A stretch of 64,000 nucleotides of DNA from an uncultured Gammaproteobacteria bacterium. GTDB lineage: Bacteria; Patescibacteriota; Patescibacteriia; 2-01-FULL-39-33. The notes under the pieces were generated by a model. That model did no database searches. It was not told where the DNA came from and saw only the letters and a list, made by a program, of their open reading frames with translations. A program made the position numbers and the translations under genes. Shown here one piece after another: positions 6,297 to 63,553 of this stretch; the first letter of the stretch is position 1, and every line of letters begins with the position of its first letter. The stretch is taken from contig CAZHYS010000001.1 in assembly GCA_964536975.1 (NCBI GenBank), forward strand, positions 34,329 through 98,328, written 5' to 3'.

Positions 6297-7162
6297 AATT
6301 CAGTGTCATTATTCCGGTTTTTAATGAGAGTGAGATAATCGGCCGCGTCATTGGCGAGCTGGGTTCTTTTTTGGAGAGTAATTATTCGGGGGATTACGAA
6401 ATTATCGCCGTCAACGACGGTTCGCGCGACGAATCATTGATGGTCTTGGAAAAGATAACTGCCTCTAATTTTTATTTTTTGAACAACATCTACAATAAAG
6501 GCTATGGCTCGTCCTTGAAGCGGGGCGCCAAGGAGGCGAGGGGTGAATGGCTGGTTTTTTATGACGGTGACGGCCAGCACACTCCCTTGGAATTGAAAAA
6601 ATTGCTTGATAATCTTGATAACTGCGATATGGCCGTCGGGGCGCGGAAGAAATACAATGGCCCGAAGTGGCGTCAGCCGGGAAAAAGGTTTATCTCCGCT
6701 TTGTCCAACTATTTGGTGAAATTCAAAATCCCGGATATTAATTCCGGCTTGCGGGTTGTCCGTAAGGAATGTTTTGACCGTTTTTCCCATCTTTATCCCA
6801 AAGGATTTTCTTTGAGCACGACCATCACCCTGGCCTTTCTGAAAGAGGGTTATACGGTTAAATATATTCCTGTTAATGTTGAAAGCCGGGTGGGGAAGAG
6901 TTCGGTGAAAATCGCCGACGGGTTTAATACGGTCAACTTAATCGTCAAATTGATAATGCTTTTTGCCCCATTAAGGATTTTTTTTCCCGCTTTTGTCGTT
7001 GTTTTTATCCTGTGCCTGGTCTCTTTATTTGTTGATTTGTTTGTTTACAGCTTTAATTTGAGCGAAAGCACGCTCATTCTTTTACTTAGCTCGATTTTGT
7101 TTTTATTTCTAGGTTTGATCGCCGATCAAATCGCCTCGCTCCGGCGGGAAATTAAGTCATAA
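6278..7162 (+). CDS. GT2 glycosyltransferase, polyprenyl-phosphate sugar synthase type (DPM1/ArnC/GtrB-like) with C-terminal TM helices
   Basis: 'FSVIIPVFNESEII...YEIIAVNDGSRDES', 'FYDGDGQH' DxD region, two C-terminal TM helices. Confidence 0.75.
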   Translation: MADKKIKFSVIIPVFNESEIIGRVIGELGSFLESNYSGDYEIIAVNDGSRDESLMVLEKITASNFYFLNNIYNKGYGSSLKRGAKEARGEWLVFYDGDGQHTPLELKKLLDNLDNCDMAVGARKKYNGPKWRQPGKRFISALSNYLVKFKIPDINSGLRVVRKECFDRFSHLYPKGFSLSTTITLAFLKEGYTVKYIPVNVESRVGKSSVKIADGFNTVNLIVKLIMLFAPLRIFFPAFVVVFILCLVSLFVDLFVYSFNLSESTLILLLSSILFLFLGLIADQIASLRREIKS

Positions 7163-32515: not shown

Positions 32516-33682
32516 ATGGAAGCAAAAAATCAACTTCCCCGGGTCGCCATTGTCGTTTGCGCTTGGCCGCCCCAGGGCGGCGGTATCGGCAATAATGCCT
32601 ACTATCACGCTAAGCGCCTGCCTGCCCTCGGCTACCGGACGACGGTATTCACGCCGGATTTTCCCAAGATCAAAAAACTCAAAGCGGAAAGATTTTCGCT
32701 GGAATATCTGCCGGTCGTTCTGCCGCTCGGTAAGGCGGGGTTTCTTTTTTCGCTAATGAAAAAATTGGCGGATTTTGACATCATTCATCTTTACTATCCG
32801 TTTTTTGGCACTGACCTGATCGTTTGGTGGTTTAAGATTTTTAATCGCCGGCCAAAATTGGTACTGCATTATGAAATGGATCCGGTCGGCCGCGGCGGCA
32901 AGAAGATTCTTTTTTGGATTTATATCAAATTATTTCTCGGAGTAGTCGTAAAAGCCAGCGACGCGGTCGGTGTTCTGTCGTGGGACAATGCCAGGAATTC
33001 TTATCTCAAAAAATATCTCAAGAAATATCCGCGGAAATTCGTTCATCTGCCCAACGGCGTGGATGTTAATATCTTTCGACCCGGCCTGAAATATTCAGCG
33101 CTCAAAGATGGGCTGGGCATTGCCGCCGGGGAAAAAGTGATTGCTTTTGCCGGCGGCTTGGGGCGACTTCATTTTTTCAAGGGCGTGGATGTCTTGTTGC
33201 GGGCGTTTAAAAAATTGCCCGGCCGGAGAAACAAATTGCTCATCATCGGCGATGGCGATAAGCGGGCTGATTACGAAAATTTGGCGCGAGAGCTCGGCTT
33301 GGCTGATCGGGTGATTTTTACCGGCTGGGTGGCCAATGAAGATTTGCCTGGCTACTACAATCTGGCGGATGTTTTTGTCCTGCCGTCTACGGCGCGGACA
33401 GAAAGCTTTGGTATTGTCGCGGCCGAAGCCCAGGCCTGCGGCGTGCCGGCGATTGTCAGTGATTGGCCGGGAGCACGGGAGACGATTATTGACGGTCAGA
33501 CCGGCCTTTTGGCTCGGCCGAAAGACGAAGACGACTTGGCGGCCAAGATTTCCCGATTGCTGGCCGACAAAGATTTGCGGCGGGAAATGTCTCTGGCCGG
33601 CCGTCGGCGAGTGGAGGAGTCGTATGATTGGGACAAAGTGATCAAAAAGATAGACGAGGTTTATAGAAAATTATTGAACTAA
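32516..33682 (+). CDS. GT4 glycosyltransferase
   Basis: 'GGGIG' N-terminus, 'ESFGIVAAEAQACGVPAIVS' EX7E. Confidence 0.8.
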   Translation: MEAKNQLPRVAIVVCAWPPQGGGIGNNAYYHAKRLPALGYRTTVFTPDFPKIKKLKAERFSLEYLPVVLPLGKAGFLFSLMKKLADFDIIHLYYPFFGTDLIVWWFKIFNRRPKLVLHYEMDPVGRGGKKILFWIYIKLFLGVVVKASDAVGVLSWDNARNSYLKKYLKKYPRKFVHLPNGVDVNIFRPGLKYSALKDGLGIAAGEKVIAFAGGLGRLHFFKGVDVLLRAFKKLPGRRNKLLIIGDGDKRADYENLARELGLADRVIFTGWVANEDLPGYYNLADVFVLPSTARTESFGIVAAEAQACGVPAIVSDWPGARETIIDGQTGLLARPKDEDDLAAKISRLLADKDLRREMSLAGRRRVEESYDWDKVIKKIDEVYRKLLN

Positions 33683-33687
33683 TAGGC

Positions 33688-33748
33688 CGTACCCTCCCCT
33701 TTTACAACCTGCCTGCCGGTAGGCAGGGGGGAGGGTCAGGGAGGGGTA
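33688..33748. repeat. GC-rich palindromic mini-repeat, copy A (intergenic)
   Basis: 'accctcccct...ggggagggtcagggaggggt'; shares 'cctcccc/ggggagg...agggggt' core with copies at 38451, 51594, 63493. Confidence 0.7.
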
Positions 33749-34222: not shown

Positions 34223-34353
34223 CATTTTCCTCTTTTGGCGTTAAGATATGGCGATTGGGAGGAAATGTTCCTTTCACTACGCAATATGGGAAACAATCAC
34301 TATCCGCTTGGCGCGGCTGGTGAGGTAACAGGGAAAATAGGAGGATAGGTTCT

Positions 34354-37367: not shown

Positions 37368-38636
37368 ATGAAAATCGTTGTTATTCATCCAATTTTTCAG
37401 CCGGAAACTCGCGGCGGCGCCGAGGTCGCCGTTGATAATATTGTCAACGGTCTTCTTGCCGCCGGCCACAATGTCGTCGTAATTTGCGTTGGCCGGAAAG
37501 ACGTTTCCGAAATCTCGGCTAATTATTTTCCCGATCAAAATGAAAGTTTGACGGTTTACCGTATCAAGCCGTTTAATCTTTTCAATTTTTTGGATATCAA
37601 TTCCCAGCCGGCTTGGCGCCGTTTGCCCTGGCACATTATTGATATGTTCAATATCAATCAGGCGTGGCGAGTCAAAGATATTTTATGCCAAGAAAATCCG
37701 GATTTGGTATTGACGCACAATCTCAAGGGCCTCGGCTACCTGATTCCTCGCGCCATTAAAAAATTAAAATTAAAACACGCCCATACCATTCACGATATGC
37801 AATTGTTGCATCCGTCCGGCCTGCTCGTAGAGACGGGGCATGCCCCGTCTCTACCAGTGGCCATTTATCGCTGGTTTTGCCGCTGGCTATTTGGTTCGCC
37901 GGAGACAGTGGCGTTTCCTTCCGAGTATATCAAAGCGGTTTACGAGCGTTACGGTTTTTTCAAAAAATCTTATAAGGTAGTCATCGGCAATCCGATTCAA
38001 TTTCCAATTTTTAATTTAAAATTTTCAAAAAAAACCGAAATTCTAAATTCTAAATTTCAAATTCTTTTCCTCGGTCAGGTGGAGGCCTACAAAGGCATTT
38101 TTGAGCTCATTGAGGCGCTAAAAGGGGTAACGGGCGATTGGGCACTGAATGTCGTGGGCGATGGCAAGGCCTTGCCAAAGGCCAAAATTTTGGCCCAGGA
38201 GGCCACTCCTGATGCCCTTTCTGGGGCTCTGGCTGGCCCCAGGATCAAGTTTTGGGGGCGCCTTGGCCAATCAGAGCTGGAGGAGAAAATCTGGCCGCGA
38301 ACAAATATTTTGGTCAACCCCAGCCTCACTAATGAAAGTTTTGGCATGGTGGTGGTTGAAGCGTATGCCCATGGCGTGCCGGCGCTGGTTTCGGGTAGGG
38401 GCGCTCTGCCGGAATTGGTGCGAGAAGGGGAGACAGGGTTTGTTGTTTCTTCCTCCCCCTTTAAAAGAGGGAGGCTGGGAGGGGGTGATTCCGCAGAATC
38501 ATGGCGGGAGAAAATAGATTGGTGTTTGACGCACCGCCGCGAGATAGAGGGGATGAGAGAGAAATGTATAAAAGAAGCGGAGAAGTATAAATTGGAAAAT
38601 TATTTGAATAGATTATTAAATTATATCAATAATTAA
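37368..38636 (+). CDS. GT4 glycosyltransferase (carries in-frame mini-repeat insertion)
   Basis: 'GGAEV' N-terminus, 'ESFGMVVVEAYAHGVPALVS' EX7E; insertion 'SSPFKRGRLGGGDSAES' encoded by GC-rich palindromic element. Confidence 0.75.
   Translation: MKIVVIHPIFQPETRGGAEVAVDNIVNGLLAAGHNVVVICVGRKDVSEISANYFPDQNESLTVYRIKPFNLFNFLDINSQPAWRRLPWHIIDMFNINQAWRVKDILCQENPDLVLTHNLKGLGYLIPRAIKKLKLKHAHTIHDMQLLHPSGLLVETGHAPSLPVAIYRWFCRWLFGSPETVAFPSEYIKAVYERYGFFKKSYKVVIGNPIQFPIFNLKFSKKTEILNSKFQILFLGQVEAYKGIFELIEALKGVTGDWALNVVGDGKALPKAKILAQEATPDALSGALAGPRIKFWGRLGQSELEEKIWPRTNILVNPSLTNESFGMVVVEAYAHGVPALVSGRGALPELVREGETGFVVSSSPFKRGRLGGGDSAESWREKIDWCLTHRREIEGMREKCIKEAEKYKLENYLNRLLNYINN
38451..38487. repeat. GC-rich palindromic mini-repeat, copy B (in-frame inside GT4 CDS)
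   Basis: 'tcctccccctttaaaagagggaggctgggagggggt'. Confidence 0.75.
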
Positions 38637-44518: not shown

Positions 44519-44930
44519 TTGTCATTGCGAGTCCGCCGCGGCGGATATGGCAATCCCATATTGATTAAGAGTAACCATTCTAAAAACATGGGATCGCCAC
44601 AGTCGTCCGCTTTCGTATTAACAAAATCGTCCTCCCTCGCGATGACACAGTCTTTCGGGTTACCGACTATTCCGAGTTCCGTAGAGACGTCCCGAGCGTT
44701 CGGGGCGTCTCTACAATTATTACTGATTACTTGTTACTTATTACGGTTTCATAGACTTTATGAACTTTACGGACTTTATAGACTTTTGACTACTAAAATT
44801 CCATGTTATGCGTTACGTGATTTCCGAGTTACGAGTCGCGAGTTCCGGGTTGCGGATAGACGCGATAAATCGCGTCTCTACAAATCCCTACATCCTAATT
44901 CCTAATTCCTAATCCCTGTGCTATAATATA
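44519..44930. repeat. Composite intergenic repeat block (palindromic 'gtcattgcgag...cgcgatgacaca', 'ccgagttacgagtcgcgagttccg', 'cctaattcctaa' arrays)
   Basis: Related copies at 50100-50310 and 62150-62300; ORF 44519..44905 here is repeat-derived. Confidence 0.6.
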
Positions 44931-47188: not shown

Positions 47189-47236
47189 AGTCAAAAGTCA
47201 AAAGTCTATAAAGTCCGTAAAGTCCATAAAGTCAAA
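47182..47236. repeat. Inverted-repeat partner of 44748-44793 (about 38 bp core, 1 mismatch)
   Basis: 'agtcaaaagtctataaagtccgtaaagtccataaagtc' is reverse complement of 'gactttatgaactttacggactttatagacttttgact'. Confidence 0.7.
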
Positions 47237-47321: not shown

Positions 47322-47362
47322 TTTATTAGACATTAGAAATTAGACATTAGAAATTTTATTAG
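47322..47362. repeat. 'tagaaatt/tagacatt' repeat array; inverted partner at 52751-52781, related copy 57310-57350
   Basis: 'ttttattagacattagaaattagacattagaaattttattag' vs 'tctaatttctaatgtctaatttctaataaaa'. Confidence 0.65.
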
Positions 47363-50075: not shown

Positions 50076-50384
50076 TGGGGGATGGAATACTGGGATCGTA
50101 GGCAGTAATCAGTAATTGGTAACGGGATTTTGGTTCGGAACTCGTAACTCGCGACTCGTAACTCGGAATAGTCCGTGATGTGGAGTACTGCGTCATCCCG
50201 AGCGAAGTCGAGGGATCCCTCCACGGAGTTTACCCTGAGCGTAGTCGAAGGGATCGGGATGACAAAATGGAAATGGGATTGCTTCGTCCGCTTGAGGCGT
50301 CCTCGCAATGACAGTGCTAAGCGGATTGGAAATTTATTGTAAATTTTAAATTGAAAACTTGTGGTGAACGAAGCTGAACCATTA

Positions 50385-50642
50385 AAAATTTGTAGCTATG
50401 CGCATCCAAATTAATCATATTGGCAAGATGTCCGCCTTCGCTCCGTTGAGCTTTGGCGAGACGAATATTTAGATAATTAATTATTTTTTTAAAATTTGTA
50501 GCTATGCGCATCCAAATTAATCATATTGGCAAGATGTCCGCCTTCGCTCCGTTGAGCTTTGGCGAGACGAATATTTAGATAATTAATTATTTTTTTAAAA
50601 TTTGTAGCTATGCGCATCCAAATTAATCATATTGGCAAGATG
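50385..50642 (+). repeat. 106-bp tandem direct repeat (about 2.3 copies), each copy containing the first 33 nt of hydA and its upstream region
   Basis: 'aaaatttgtagctatgcgcatccaaattaatcatattggcaagatg' recurs with ATGs at 50398, 50504, 50610; first two copies continue 'tccgccttcgctccgttgagctttggcgagacgaatatttag'. Confidence 0.85.
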
Positions 50643-51941
50643 GAGGGGCACGCTGATTTTGTGGCCGAGATTTTGCGTGGCGATGTAAAATCAGCCAAAA
50701 TCATCACCACCGAAGGCGCGCGGCTGATTGAAGGCATCTTGATCGGTCGGCATTTTTCCGAGGCGCCGATAATCACCTCTCGCATTTGTGGCATTTGTCC
50801 GGTCGTCCACAAATTGTCATCAATCAAAGCGATTGAAAACGCCTTTGACATTACGCCCAGAGAACAAATCGTCAAACTCCGCAAATTGATCAATTTGGCG
50901 CAAGTCATCCATAGTCACGCGCTTCATCTTTTCTTCTTGTCTTTGCCGGATTTTTTTGACATTGAAAACGATCTCAACTTTGTCAAAAAATATCCTCGCG
51001 AAACAGGGTGCGCCATCAAGACGAGGGATTGGGCGCTCAAAATCATTGAGGTCGTCGGCGGCCGGGCCGTTCATCCGATTGCCTGCGAGGTCGGCGGTTT
51101 CAAAGTTTGGCCGGAAAAAAACGAATTGAAAAATCTAGCCGATCAATACGAAACGATTTTGAAAAATGCTTTGAGTCTGGTCAATTTTGCCATCACGATA
51201 AAATATCCGAGGTTTCGCCGGCCAACCGCGTTTGTCAGCTTGACAAACAAAGACGAGTACGCGCTGTACGACGGCGATGTCAAAATAACAGAACCGGACG
51301 GCGGGAGCCGGATAATCAAAGCGGAAAGATATACCAAAAATATCAAAGAGATAGAGGAGCCGTATCGGGCGGCTAAGTCGGCGACTTTAGACGGCAAGCC
51401 GTTTATGGTCGGCGCTTTGGCGCGAATAAACAATAATCGCGACCAGCTCAATCCGTTGGCCAAGGGATTGCTCAAAGGATTAAATTGGAGATTTCCGCAG
51501 TACAACACTTTTGAAAACATTACCGCTCAGGCGATTGAAATAGTCCATTGCATTGAAGAGGCAAAGAAGATTTTGGATGATTTGGTGTCTGACTCCTCCA
51601 CCTTACGGAGGGGGAGGCTGGGAGGGGGTAAAACGCAAAAGGAAGAACAGCTATCATTGGATGTCATCGCCGGCGCCAATCCACTCGGCCGGGAAGCAAT
51701 AGGCGTAGACGCGATTGAAGCGCCGCGGGGCACCTTGTATCATTATTACAAGATCGATAAGAATGGCTATATCGCTGATTGCAACATTATCACGCCGACC
51801 GTTTCTTATCTGAAAAATTTGGAAGCGGATGTTTTGGCCTATCTCCCCAACGTGATGAAACTGCCTACCAAAAAACGGGCGATCAAAATCCGTGGCCTTA
51901 TCCGCGCTTACGATCCGTGTATTGCGTGTGCGACACACTGA
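50610..51941 (+). CDS. hydA: [NiFe] hydrogenase large (alpha) subunit, group 3b-like, without C-terminal processing extension
   Basis: N-terminal 'RICGICPVVH' and C-terminal 'DPCIACATH' nickel-binding motifs; protein ends at the His. Confidence 0.8.
   Translation: MRIQINHIGKMEGHADFVAEILRGDVKSAKIITTEGARLIEGILIGRHFSEAPIITSRICGICPVVHKLSSIKAIENAFDITPREQIVKLRKLINLAQVIHSHALHLFFLSLPDFFDIENDLNFVKKYPRETGCAIKTRDWALKIIEVVGGRAVHPIACEVGGFKVWPEKNELKNLADQYETILKNALSLVNFAITIKYPRFRRPTAFVSLTNKDEYALYDGDVKITEPDGGSRIIKAERYTKNIKEIEEPYRAAKSATLDGKPFMVGALARINNNRDQLNPLAKGLLKGLNWRFPQYNTFENITAQAIEIVHCIEEAKKILDDLVSDSSTLRRGRLGGGKTQKEEQLSLDVIAGANPLGREAIGVDAIEAPRGTLYHYYKIDKNGYIADCNIITPTVSYLKNLEADVLAYLPNVMKLPTKKRAIKIRGLIRAYDPCIACATH
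51594..51629. repeat. GC-rich palindromic mini-repeat, copy C (in-frame inside hydA)
   Basis: 'tcctccaccttacggagggggaggctgggagggggt' encodes 'SSTLRRGRLGGG'. Confidence 0.75.
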
Positions 51942-51945
51942 AATG

Positions 51946-52056
51946 GCATATGGCTAATAGCTTATAGCATATAGCTTATAGCTTATAGCTTATAGCTTAT
52001 AGCTTATAGCATATAGCATATAACATATAGCTTATAGCATATAGCATATGGTATAT
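51946..52056. repeat. Microsatellite (agcttat / agcatat heptamer array)
   Basis: 'agcttatagcttatagcttatagcttatagcttatagcatatagcatat'; reverse-complement motif 'ccataagc' arrays at 47385-47430 and 52455-52480. Confidence 0.85.
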
Positions 52057-52081
52057 AATGAATAAATTATAATGATACTTC

Positions 52082-52740: not shown

Positions 52741-52869
52741 GAATGAAGTTTCTAATTTCTAATGTCTAATTTCTAATAAAATTCAAATTTTTAAATTTTA
52801 TTTGTTTTTTTGTAGTTTTTGATTTTGAATTTTATGCGGCTATCTTAATCTATGTTATAATATGTTCAG

Positions 52870-56472: not shown

Positions 56473-57297
56473 ATGGAAAAATATTGTTTTTTAAATGGTC
56501 GGACCGTGTCTTTGAAAAACGCGAAAATACCGATAGATGACATCGGCGTTTTGCGCGCTTATGGCGTTTTTGATTTTCTTCGCACTTATCATGGTCGGCT
56601 GTTTCTTTTTCGTGAACATTGGCAACGGTTTTGCCGATCGGCCAAGACATTGGGTGTAAAAATTCCGACTTCGGAGGCGCAGACCAAGAAGATAGTTTAT
56701 GATTTGATGAAGAAAAATGAGCTGTCAGATGCGACTGCCCGTCTGGTCTTGACTGGCGGCTCAAGTCGAGATGGCATGCATTTTGGCGATAGCCAGCCGA
56801 ACTTTTTCATTCTGCTTGGCAAAATTCCGCCGCGAAAAGAGAAGGATTATATCAATGGCGTGGAATTATTACCGGTAGAACATCAACGGGAATTTCCGAT
56901 CGCCAAATCAAATAGTTATTTGACCTCCATAAAATTCAAAAATTTTCCCCATTCAGATAAAATATTGGATTTGCTGTATTGCGACGATGGAAAAATCTTG
57001 GAGGGATCGACTTGCAATTTCTTTCTGATCAAGGGAAATAATTTGATCACAGCCAAGGATGGCATTTTGTCTGGTGTAACGAGAAATTTTGTCATCAAGC
57101 TGGCCAAGAAGAAAATGAAGGTGAAGGAAAGAGAGGTCTTGTTTGAAGAATTAAAACAGGCCGATGAGACGTTTATTACTACCACCACCAAAGAAATCCT
57201 GCCTGTGGTCAAAGTGGGAAAAGTCAAAGTCGGCTCTGGGAAAGTAGGTGAGAAGACAAAAATGTTGATGGGATTGTTTAGAGAAGCGGTTGGATAG
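56473..57297 (+). CDS. Class IV (fold type IV) PLP-dependent aminotransferase (BCAT/DAAT/ADCL family)
   Basis: About 270 aa; 'YGVFDFLRTY', 'EGSTCNFF', 'GVTR' motifs. Confidence 0.65.
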   Translation: MEKYCFLNGRTVSLKNAKIPIDDIGVLRAYGVFDFLRTYHGRLFLFREHWQRFCRSAKTLGVKIPTSEAQTKKIVYDLMKKNELSDATARLVLTGGSSRDGMHFGDSQPNFFILLGKIPPRKEKDYINGVELLPVEHQREFPIAKSNSYLTSIKFKNFPHSDKILDLLYCDDGKILEGSTCNFFLIKGNNLITAKDGILSGVTRNFVIKLAKKKMKVKEREVLFEELKQADETFITTTTKEILPVVKVGKVKVGSGKVGEKTKMLMGLFREAVG

Positions 57298-57373
57298 AAA
57301 ATTGTAATTATTAATTAGAAATTAGGATTTAGAAATTAGAAATTTAATGAGTAATTATTTTTTTTAAAATCCA

Positions 57374-62100: not shown

Positions 62101-62158
62101 ATTAATTTTCAATTTTCAATTTAAAATTTACAATAAATTTTCAATCTGCTTTCATGTT

Positions 62159-62300
62159 GTCATCCCGACCCCTTCGACTACGCTCAGGGTAAACTCCGTG
62201 GAGGGATCCCTCCACTCGTCCGCTTGGAGGCGTCCTCGGCCGGAATGACACAGTATCCCGAATTCCGAGTCGCTAGTCCCGGGTCCCGTTACTGGTTACT
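62159..62300. repeat. Dispersed palindromic element (inverted copy of 50188-50310 element)
   Basis: 'ttgtcatcccgaccccttcgactacgctcagggtaaactccgtggagggatccctcc...cgtccgcttggaggcgtcctcg' matches 50188-50310 in opposite orientation. Confidence 0.75.
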
Positions 62301-62441: not shown

Positions 62442-63476
62442 GTGAAACTACCAAAAGTCACAATTCAAATCGTCACCTGGAATAGTCTGAAATTTTTGCC
62501 GTTTTGCCTCAAAGCGATTTTCAATCAGACTTATCGCGATTTTCAGGTACTCGTGATTGATAATAATTCCCAAGACGGAACAGTTGATTTTTTGCGCCGG
62601 AATTATCCCGAGGTGACGGTTTTTCAGAACAAAAAAAATCTCGGTTTTGCCAAGGCCAACAATCAAGGCATCAAGCTGTTCAACTCGTCTTTTGTCGTGG
62701 TTTGCAATCCTGATATCGTGATGGCGGAGACTTGGCTGGAAAAAATAATGGCCCAGGCCGAAAAAAAGCAGTACGAAGAATGCGGCAGCTTCGGCGGAAC
62801 GCTATTAAAGCTCCGGGCGATTAATTCTGATTTGGGCGAATTTGAGCAAACCAGCGCCATTGATTCGCGCGGACTGGTGATTTTCAAAAGCCATCGCATC
62901 GCCGAGATCGGCGCTGGCCAAAAAGATGACAAGATTGGCGATAGCGAGGTATTCGGCCACTCCGGCGCGCTAGTGATGTATCGGCGCTCGGCGCTGGAAG
63001 ATTGCCTCTACCGATCCAAAAGAAATCCGACCGGCGAATATTTTGACGAAGATTTTTTCTTTTACAAAGAAGACGCGGATTTGGCTTGGCGGCTTCGTTT
63101 GGCCGGCTTCAAGTCGCTGTTTGTCGCCGGCGCCCGCGCTTATCATATCCGTTCTTTGGCGGAAAACAACGCCAAGACAACAGGGGAGATTGTCAAAAAC
63201 CGGCGCCAGCAGTCGGCCCTGGCTCGCCGGCACTCCTATCGCAATCATTTGTTTGTCTTGATAAAGAACGAATCTTGGAAAAATTTATTGAGATATTTCC
63301 CGTTTATTTTTTTCTATGAATTAAAAAAAATAATTTATATCCTGATTTTTGAGTGGACCACTTTGCCGGCGATAGGCGATTTTTTCCGCCTGCTGCCGCG
63401 GATGCTTAAAAAACGCCGGAACAATCTGAAGCAGGCGCGAGTCAGTCCGCAAGAAATCAGAAAATGGATAAAATAA
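62442..63476 (+). CDS. GT2 glycosyltransferase, GTG start
   Basis: 'VTIQIVTWNSLKFL...VLVIDNNSQDGT', 'DEDFFFYKEDADLAWR'. Confidence 0.75.
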   Translation: MKLPKVTIQIVTWNSLKFLPFCLKAIFNQTYRDFQVLVIDNNSQDGTVDFLRRNYPEVTVFQNKKNLGFAKANNQGIKLFNSSFVVVCNPDIVMAETWLEKIMAQAEKKQYEECGSFGGTLLKLRAINSDLGEFEQTSAIDSRGLVIFKSHRIAEIGAGQKDDKIGDSEVFGHSGALVMYRRSALEDCLYRSKRNPTGEYFDEDFFFYKEDADLAWRLRLAGFKSLFVAGARAYHIRSLAENNAKTTGEIVKNRRQQSALARRHSYRNHLFVLIKNESWKNLLRYFPFIFFYELKKIIYILIFEWTTLPAIGDFFRLLPRMLKKRRNNLKQARVSPQEIRKWIK

Positions 63477-63492: not shown

Positions 63493-63531
63493 TCTTCCCT
63501 CTCCTTGTCTGAAGGAGGGGGTAGGGGGAGG
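63493..63531. repeat. GC-rich palindromic mini-repeat, copy D (intergenic)
   Basis: 'ccctctccttgtctgaaggagggggtagggggagg'. Confidence 0.65.
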
Positions 63532-63553
63532 TCCAAGGGAATTAAATAATTTA

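Follow-up and report, generated by a model that had tools for sequence, protein, structure and literature searches.

Holder et al. 2015 described an architecture that they termed class II purine-motif intrastrand triplex motifs (PMC4666352). Repeats of this kind were discovered in E. coli in the 1990s as BoxC (Bachellier et al.) and were encountered again by Hoyne and Maher 2000, 2002, who called them PIT elements (PMC4666352). Holder et al. gave the name TMECO to the pattern CCCTCNCCC N3-6 GGGNGAGGG N3 GGGNGAGGG; it was counted in 3,610 copies across 262 proteobacterial genomes, and its oligonucleotides formed very stable triplexes in vitro as judged by circular dichroism (CD) and nuclear magnetic resonance (NMR) (PMC4666352). 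In E. coli MG1655, TMECO copies are "always located intergenically", five pairs are inverted, no transposase is associated with them, and they are tied to local genomic variability (PMC4666352). PIT elements have neither promoter nor terminator activity, purine-motif triplexes do not form in RNA, and by 2015 an agreed function, origin, and means of spread were still lacking for BoxC/PIT/TMECO (PMC4666352). Here, we describe four small C- and G-rich elements in a 64,000-nt stretch of DNA (the window; positions 34,329 to 98,328 of contig CAZHYS010000001.1) from a member of the candidate phyla radiation (CPR). These elements are likely members of the known intrastrand-triplex repeat class (BoxC/PIT/TMECO), and two of them have been inserted in genes, probably as tolerated, translated loops.

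The four motif sites were labeled E1, E2, E3, and E4 in 5' to 3' order along the + strand, on which their coordinates are given below. A preliminary description of this DNA had reported a GC-rich palindromic mini-repeat family at four loci of that strand, and direct inspection of the window placed all four exactly where it had put them. The window has a G+C content of 45%, a composition at which C and G runs like those of E1-E4 are rare. E2 (38451..38486) is a 36-nt in-frame insert reading SSPFKRGRLGGG in a gene for a family 4 glycosyltransferase (GT4; 37368..38636, 422 aa, Pfam Glycos_transf_1 / Glyco_transf_4). It is composed of a pyrimidine stem CCTCCCCCT (38452-38460), loop TTAAA, a purine stem AGAGGGAGG (38466-38474), turn CTG, and a third stem GGAGGGGGT (38478-38486), which together give nine triads with one mismatch. 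E3 (51594..51629) is likewise a 36-nt in-frame insert, reading SSTLRRGRLGGG, in a [NiFe]-hydrogenase large-subunit gene (50610..51941, 443 aa, Pfam NiFeSe_Hases), with a pyrimidine stem CCTCCACCT (51595-51603), loop TACGG, purine stem AGGGGGAGG (51609-51617), turn CTG, and third stem GGAGGGGGT (51621-51629). Homologs of both host proteins were found in Patescibacteria (e.g., Buchananbacteria for the GT4), and the inserts lie in the protein contexts ...SSSPFKRGRLGGGDSAES... (E2) and ...SSTLRRGRLGGGKTQKEEQ... (E3).

The other two elements are intergenic. E1 (33692..33746) starts 9 nt past the stop codon of another GT4 gene (32516-33682) and has a pyrimidine stem CCCTCCCC (33692-33699), a loop 1 of 28 nt (33700-33727) in which the hairpin CCTGCCTGCCGGTAGGCAGG is nested, a purine stem GGGGAGGG (33728-33735), turn TCA, and a third stem GGGAGGGG (33739-33746), giving eight triads, all of them perfect. 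E4 (63497..63532) starts 20 nt past the stop codon of a GT2 gene (62442-63476) and is built on a different stem: pyrimidine stem CCCTCTCCT (63497-63505), loop TGTCTGA, purine stem AGGAGGGGG (63513-63521), turn TA, and third stem GGGGGAGGT (63524-63532). A Saccharibacteria UvrC gene (L186, 3778-3838) resembles E1 in having a motif whose long loop 1 forms a hairpin of its own, and in both places a second small palindrome may have inserted into the loop.

E2 and E3 are copies of one 12-codon unit in the identical frame (TCC TCC CCC TTT AAA AGA GGG AGG CTG GGA GGG GGT and TCC TCC ACC TTA CGG AGG GGG AGG CTG GGA GGG GGT, respectively); the preliminary description had noted that these two intragenic copies share a frame. 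They agree at 30 of 36 nt, and four of the six differences fall within or beside loop 1. The 17-mer GGAGGCTGGGAGGGGGT has exact copies in the window only at 38470-38486 and 51613-51629 (0.11 expected), and GGGAGGGG occurs four times, three of them inside the elements. E1 and E4 are more diverged and have a common design with E2/E3, not a common sequence.

That design runs from a 5' C/T stem through a loop, a Watson-Crick-complementary G/A stem, and a 2-3-nt turn to a third G/A(T) stem that mirrors the second. The hairpin's G-rich arm is mirrored, and not directly repeated, in the G-rich segment at the 3' end: in E2 and E3 the arm (A)GGGGGAGG is followed by the segment GGAGGGGGT, and in E4 the arm AGGAGGGGG is followed by the mirror segment GGGGGAGGT. 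The purine stem of E4 carries its A at another place than in E2/E3, and its third stem mirrors the shift (covariation). Contrary to the term "palindromic" used in the preliminary description, the element is no plain palindrome: its 3' "gggagggggt" mirrors the G-rich hairpin arm. A layout of pyrimidine stem, loop, purine stem, turn, and mirror purine stem is what an intramolecular purine-motif triple helix requires of a single strand.

Watson-Crick pairing between the pyrimidine and purine stems was complete in E1 (8/8) and reached 8/9 in each of E2, E3, and E4. Third stems following the triads C:G.G, T:A.A, and T:A.T (stems of 6-15 nt, at most one mismatch) were found at E1-E4 and nowhere else in the window. 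An ITxF-like triad-rule scan, which required three stems of 8 nt or more and a G/C share of 50% or more and tolerated one bad triad, returned E1-E4 alone on the + strand and had no match on the - strand, and 200 dinucleotide-preserving shuffles of the window gave a mean of 0.04 matches with a maximum of 1. Loop lengths in E2 and E3 (5 and 3 nt) are within the ITxF range of 1-6 nt.

The mirror arrangement was then compared with a direct one in other sequences. In IMG/VR viral contigs, the mirror pattern CCTCCCCC N4-12 GGGGGAGG N1-4 GGAGGGGG matched 106 stretches and the direct control, which ends in GGGGGAGG and has equal composition and specified bases, matched seven. A third arm acting as a direct repeat or as an alternative hairpin partner was rejected on this count, direct layouts being rare. 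Among 400 asymmetric homopyrimidine/homopurine hairpins (sites used to fetch loci excluded), the mirror arm came next in 71, the direct arm in 25, and both in 22, so that 49 were mirror-only and three direct-only. The third arm of these hairpins frequently had T opposite A:T, a change permitted by the purine-motif rule. In the CPR stem families CCTCCCCC, CCCCTCTCC, CCCCCTCC, and CCCTCCCC, the third arm covaries with every one.

Both intragenic copies can be compared with orthologs lacking them. In the GT4, the 13-residue segment SSSPFKRGRLGGG was lacking in all homologs of up to 60% identity and present in the sole close relative (98%); the protein database contained no GT4 relative between 60% and 98%. 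The DNA of the 98% relative carries a perfect motif, TCCTCCCCCTTTAAAAGGGGGAGGTTGGGAGGGGGT, and the window copy has one mismatch, which by this comparison was acquired since the two split. In the hydrogenase, relatives of 83-84% identity have the insert at the same codons (SSSLRMGRLGGG, SSPLRRGKIGGG), relatives of up to 78% lack it, and the insert diverges about as fast as its flanks. A codon-aware alignment with two empty-site orthologs showed that the 36 nt of E3 lie where these orthologs have one or two unrelated codons, and no target-site duplication was visible at E3 against these two orthologs. Judged by these alignments, E2 and E3 are lineage-specific in-frame insertions, which bears out what the preliminary description had proposed; E2 would be a recent insertion, and E3 an older, vertically inherited one that is decaying by point mutation.

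The same GT4 loop appears to have been occupied more than once. A homolog of 47% identity (P0020) has, in the loop that holds E2, a well-preserved motif copy that is independent of E2, and one permissive loop can be hit on separate occasions. A further homolog (P0006) has a copy in another loop of the enzyme. Other low-complexity inserts (HPAFAGHG(A/V)PSL, SLRAKRSNL…ARGPRNDN, PLPRGGRGGV, and LPPPRPAFANASADCPPLPTGQAG) were observed in four variable loops of homologs P0005, P0011, P0013, P0042, and P0073 (alignment A1). The variety of inserts among these GT4 orthologs suggests that several distinct small repeat families insert into CPR genes.

AlphaFold models agree with the surface-loop location that had been proposed from the sequence, and the secondary-structure elements on either side of both inserts are well predicted. 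The E2 insert is modeled in coil between strand 357-360 and helix 375-388, with pLDDT below 50 at residues 365-374, and the E3 insert in coil between helices 302-327 and 343-355, with pLDDT below 50 at residues 332-340. In-frame copies in CPR genes thus probably add floppy surface loops, as far as predicted structures can indicate.

Further copies were sought in a sample of CPR loci (207 kb, most of it fetched because it contained a motif, one per locus), and the triad-rule scanner detected 40 motifs there. Many of these were paired as inverted doublets whose two members overlapped or were separated by 15-25 nt. Ten long motif-containing open reading frames (ORFs) were checked against Pfam; all ten were housekeeping genes, and their domain matches flanked the insert on both sides or were split by it. 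The interrupted genes were those for LepA (three motifs), an IleRS-type synthetase, AlaRS, RecJ, UvrC, TsaD (two motifs), KsgA, TrmD, an RluD-type pseudouridine synthase (two motifs), and an RsmI-type methylase. In the Falkowbacteria LepA gene (L143, 1525-3531), two of the three inserts lie between the GTPase domain and domain 2, where they make up an inverted doublet. Inserts occurred in both orientations and in at least four frame/orientation combinations, with peptides such as LPLAKGEVGRG, SSPLTRGRGEG, PPPDLPLVKGEG, and HPLPTSPLAKGEG. Because several frames are used in CPR genes, the common frame of E2 and E3 is no rule of the family.

Dispersal beyond the CPR was broad, and the prediction of a dispersed repeat family with further copies was borne out, except that the copies are not specific to the source genome: very many were found in other genomes from many bacterial phyla. 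A strict E2-type pattern of 31 bases (CCTCCCCCTT N1-8 AAGGGGGAGG N1-4 GGGAGGGGGT) occurred at at least 120 loci in a species-representative genome set. Among the matches listed were Alpha-, Beta-, and Gammaproteobacteria (Cellvibrio, Aeromonas, Oceanimonas, Aliivibrio, Marinomonas), Clostridia, Streptomycetaceae, Bacteroidota, Nitrospirae, Spirochaetes, Fibrobacterota, and Anaerolineae, and CPR lineages (Buchanan-, Falkow-, Nomura-, and Saccharibacteria, Paceibacterota, Minisyncoccia) accounted for no fewer than 14 of the 80 loci listed. The flanks of strict-pattern matches were unrelated to one another. Copies in a plasmid collection were found in Photobacterium (one replicon has at least 40), Aeromonas, Deinococcus, Rahnella, and Shewanella; no plasmid match lay under an annotated feature, and the Photobacterium record has no annotation.

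The strict pattern had no match in viral contigs. A loose pattern matched at least 120 stretches there, in contigs of 39-74% G+C that often held several copies each. Viral matches lay in long open frames in 61% of cases versus 83% for random positions, a comparison in which GC-rich contigs yield spurious long frames. Orientation relative to local GC skew was 58:52, which shows no bias, and a replication-strand bias was rejected on this measure; that all four copies in the window are on one strand is probably due to chance or follows gene orientation. In complete E. coli genomes, a TMECO-type query was found in 5,409 of 5,426, at a median of 16 places per genome. A separate observation concerns Aliivibrio sifiae (L188, ~6690-6990), where an intergenic unit of ~280 nt, with GAGACTATACGC…GCTAACTAGA as its terminal inverted repeats, contains an E2-type motif and a second C/G hairpin. 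This locus, with conserved flanks, was matched again in L197, L214, and L233, one of which is titled Aliivibrio.

If E1-E4 do belong to the triplex repeat class, their history may be pictured as follows. By analogy with the TMECO literature, the element would fold as single-stranded DNA into a hairpin, and its third stem would lie antiparallel in the major groove to give C:G.G, T:A.A, and T:A.T triads. A copy would persist in a gene where the insert length is a multiple of three, the insert is free of stop codons, and the target is a tolerant surface loop. Surviving copies would then be translated into short disordered loops rich in Ser/Pro/Leu and then Arg/Gly/Glu and would decay neutrally, a scenario that does not imply any gain for the host proteins. 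Spread is the weakest step: it may involve DNA-level copying and insertion of a non-autonomous unit recognized as a folded single strand. The absence of GC-skew bias together with the absence of a target duplication does not favor a mechanism of the IS200/IS605-like or cut-and-paste kind, neither test being a strong one.

Several points weigh against assigning E1-E4 to the triplex class as mobile, translated repeats. Loop 1 of E1 (28 nt) and of E4 (7 nt) exceeds the ITxF limit of 6 nt, and E2 and E3 have one bad triad each. In-vivo dimethyl sulfate (DMS) footprinting of TMECO revealed no triplex (PMC4666352), and the triplex fold proposed for E1-E4 is carried over from TMECO by analogy. An E2-type query was found in none of the 5,426 E. 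coli genomes, and the stems differ from the TMECO consensus; the window elements are therefore assigned to a sister sequence family and not to TMECO itself. The word "mobile" is taken solely from phylogenetic presence and absence, and translation of the inserts is deduced from the preservation of frame and the lack of stop codons. No empty/filled polymorphism between near-identical strains and no target-site duplication came to light. No mobilizing enzyme turned up, although the ORFs of the window were not screened for a REP-associated tyrosine transposase (RAYT) or IS200-type gene.

The preliminary description had classed the family as similar to repetitive extragenic palindromes (REPs) or miniature transposable elements with inverted repeats (MITEs). 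An ordinary element of that sort, in which the hairpin is what matters, movement is provided in trans by a transposase (a RAYT, for example, or a HUH enzyme of the IS200/IS605 type), and the third arm serves as mere conserved flank without a part in a triplex, would fit the dispersed, multicopy distribution and the insertions relative to orthologs. It would also fit the doublets 15-25 nt apart, which look like REPINs, and the Aliivibrio copy inside a ~280-nt unit with terminal inverted repeats. Such a classification missed the third mirror arm, however, and that arm follows the triad rule across stem families, with T for A where permitted, and appears as a mirror far more often than as a direct repeat (106:7). 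MITE terminal inverted repeats were not seen, no target-site duplication was visible at E3, and the unit (35-55 nt, against 50-500 bp for MITEs) is mostly too short, at 35-40 nt falling below MITE size. IS200/IS605 elements show orientation bias, unlike the copies counted here (58:52 relative to local GC skew). No transposase was reported near TMECO either (Holder et al., PMC4666352), and we consider this explanation unlikely. A G-quadruplex (G4), formed in DNA or RNA by the G-rich half with the C-rich arm as a competing switch, would make these G4 regulatory repeats. E1 does have four runs of three or more G (GGGGGG A GGG TCA GGG A GGGG), and G4/triplex competition in vitro is noted both in PMC4666352 and in an archaeal study (PMC8044849). 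Four G3 tracts are absent from E2 (tracts of 3, 2, 3, and 5) and E3 (2, 5, 2, 3, and 5), though, and mirror and direct layouts have equal G4 potential, yet the mirror is ~15 times commoner. T-for-A changes in the third arm suit triads and not tetrads, the NMR of TMECO indicated a triplex and not a G4 (PMC4666352), and copies inside genes occur in both orientations; a G4 role is disfavored and has only a very small chance of being correct.

An RNA-level element (a terminator, an mRNA stabilizer, or a hairpin sequestering a Shine-Dalgarno-like sequence), with the intragenic copies accidental, draws on the sense orientation of E1 and E4 so close behind stop codons, on the GGAGG and CCUCC held in the arms, and on some phage contigs in which the last arm lies 6-8 nt ahead of a start codon. 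No U tract follows E1 or E4, and copies in phage and CPR loci take both orientations relative to genes. Neither the window nor any of five multi-copy viral loci had an Rfam match. RNA folding, which had been suggested as a check, did yield hairpins for all four elements, but with unremarkable z-scores, because the shuffles retain C and G runs; energies of E2 and E3 were no better than those of shuffles. Together with the lack of promoter or terminator activity in PIT and the failure of purine-motif triplexes to form in RNA (PMC4666352), this makes RNA-level roles unlikely, with hardly any chance left to them. Finally, the RGRLGGG peptide might be ancestral or convergently selected, or the DNA similarity might be fortuitous. 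A similar peptide in the same GT4 loop of the 47%-identical P0020 could be read that way, but orthologs between the window GT4 and P0020 lack the peptide, the P0020 copy is a well-preserved DNA motif, and the DNA unit also occurs between genes and in unrelated proteins in other frames. With 0.04 sites expected from shuffles, and with the ortholog alignments and the E3 empty-site comparison, this explanation is refuted and its probability is next to nil.

Membership in the triplex repeat class brings with it a broader suggestion, which we make tentatively. It is possible that CPR copies routinely colonize essential genes (translation factors, aminoacyl-tRNA synthetases, repair, and rRNA/tRNA modification), that they are a systematic source of lineage-specific loops, and that their insertion mechanism can be read from empty and filled sites. 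Three findings appear to be new in the searchable literature: the range and density of these repeats among CPR hosts, their distinct stem families, and their frequent in-frame occupation of essential genes. Searches on CPR plus palindromic elements found nothing relevant, the top-ranked literature on CPR plus triplex did not contain the word "triplex", and searches with the literal sequence words of the element returned unrelated eukaryotic papers only. For CPR protein annotation, such Gly/Arg/Pro-rich inserts should be taken as repeat-derived and not as functional motifs, and marker-gene alignment and phylogeny are affected by them. Insertions in conserved codons also permit the exact pre-insertion sequence to be recovered, which intergenic copies never did.

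Other repeats were observed in the window. Overlapping the start of the E3 host gene is a 106-nt unit in ~2.5 tandem copies (50382-50642), each of which holds the NiFe large-subunit gene start (ATGCGCATCCAAATTAATCATATTGGCAAGATG, MRIQINHIGKM) plus 16 nt upstream; copies 1-2 continue into a short ORF (…MSAFAPLSFGETNI*), and copy 3 is the real NiFe gene. A ~220-nt inverted repeat (50136-50357 and 62104-62300) has a 67-nt core that is 94% complementary and a 39-nt arm that is 95% complementary. It encloses ~11.8 kb, from a point upstream of the NiFe large-subunit gene to one upstream of the GT2 gene, and contains another palindromic module, gtcatcccgagcgaagtcgagggatccctccac…gggatgac. Short tandem arrays crowd the intergenic regions (51943-52071; 47322-47360; 52742-52798; 57295-57348; 44754-44791 / 47196-47233). 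Among them, a 7-nt TTATAGC array lies directly 3' of the NiFe stop codon, and TAGAAATTAGACAT-type and GACTTTAT-type arrays occupy several intergenic sites in both orientations.

Among described systems, the Methanomicrobiaceae repeats that combine potential quadruplex sequences (PQS) with a C-rich tract resemble the intergenic copies here in location and in being capable of hairpin, antiparallel triplex, or G4 formation (PMC8044849). They differ in that the C tract lies 3' of the G tracts, the hosts are archaeal, and intergenic copies alone are reported (PMC8044849). REP/BIME (bacterial interspersed mosaic elements) and REPIN sequences share GC-rich hairpins of 20-40 nt, inverted doublets, and many copies, but REPs are extragenic, have a GTAG-type head, flank a RAYT gene, and are without a third mirror arm; a consistent GTAG at the hairpin feet was not seen among the listed strict-pattern loci. 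Rickettsia palindromic elements (RPEs, Ogata et al. 2000) are similar in behavior, as selfish-looking palindromic in-frame inserts in unrelated housekeeping genes of a reduced-genome host, to whose proteins they add peptide segments that fit the fold (PMC10969869). RPEs are set apart by a size of ~100-150 bp, restriction to Rickettsia, longer conserved peptides, and the lack of a mirror-arm architecture (PMC10969869). By this analogy the resemblance is one of behavior only, the window elements being of a different size.

The closest likeness in architecture is to TMECO/BoxC/PIT. In both, a ~9-nt C-rich stem is followed by a loop, a G-rich stem, a 2-3-nt loop, and a mirror G-rich stem, triads are consistent with at most one mismatch, and loops vary more than stems. 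Both are multicopy and dispersed, occur as inverted pairs, and have no known transposase. The window elements do not conform to TMECO/BoxC sensu stricto in consensus or in exclusively intergenic location. Their stems are CCTCCCCCT, CCCTCCCC, and CCCTCTCCT as opposed to CCCTCNCCC in TMECO, their host is a CPR bacterium, and the loop of E1 spans 28 nt and contains a nested hairpin. Whereas TMECO is intergenic only, E2, E3, and many copies in CPR relatives lie inside ORFs that read through them. Such in-frame copies in essential genes contrast with the "always intergenic" TMECO and parallel the Rickettsia palindromic elements (PMC10969869).

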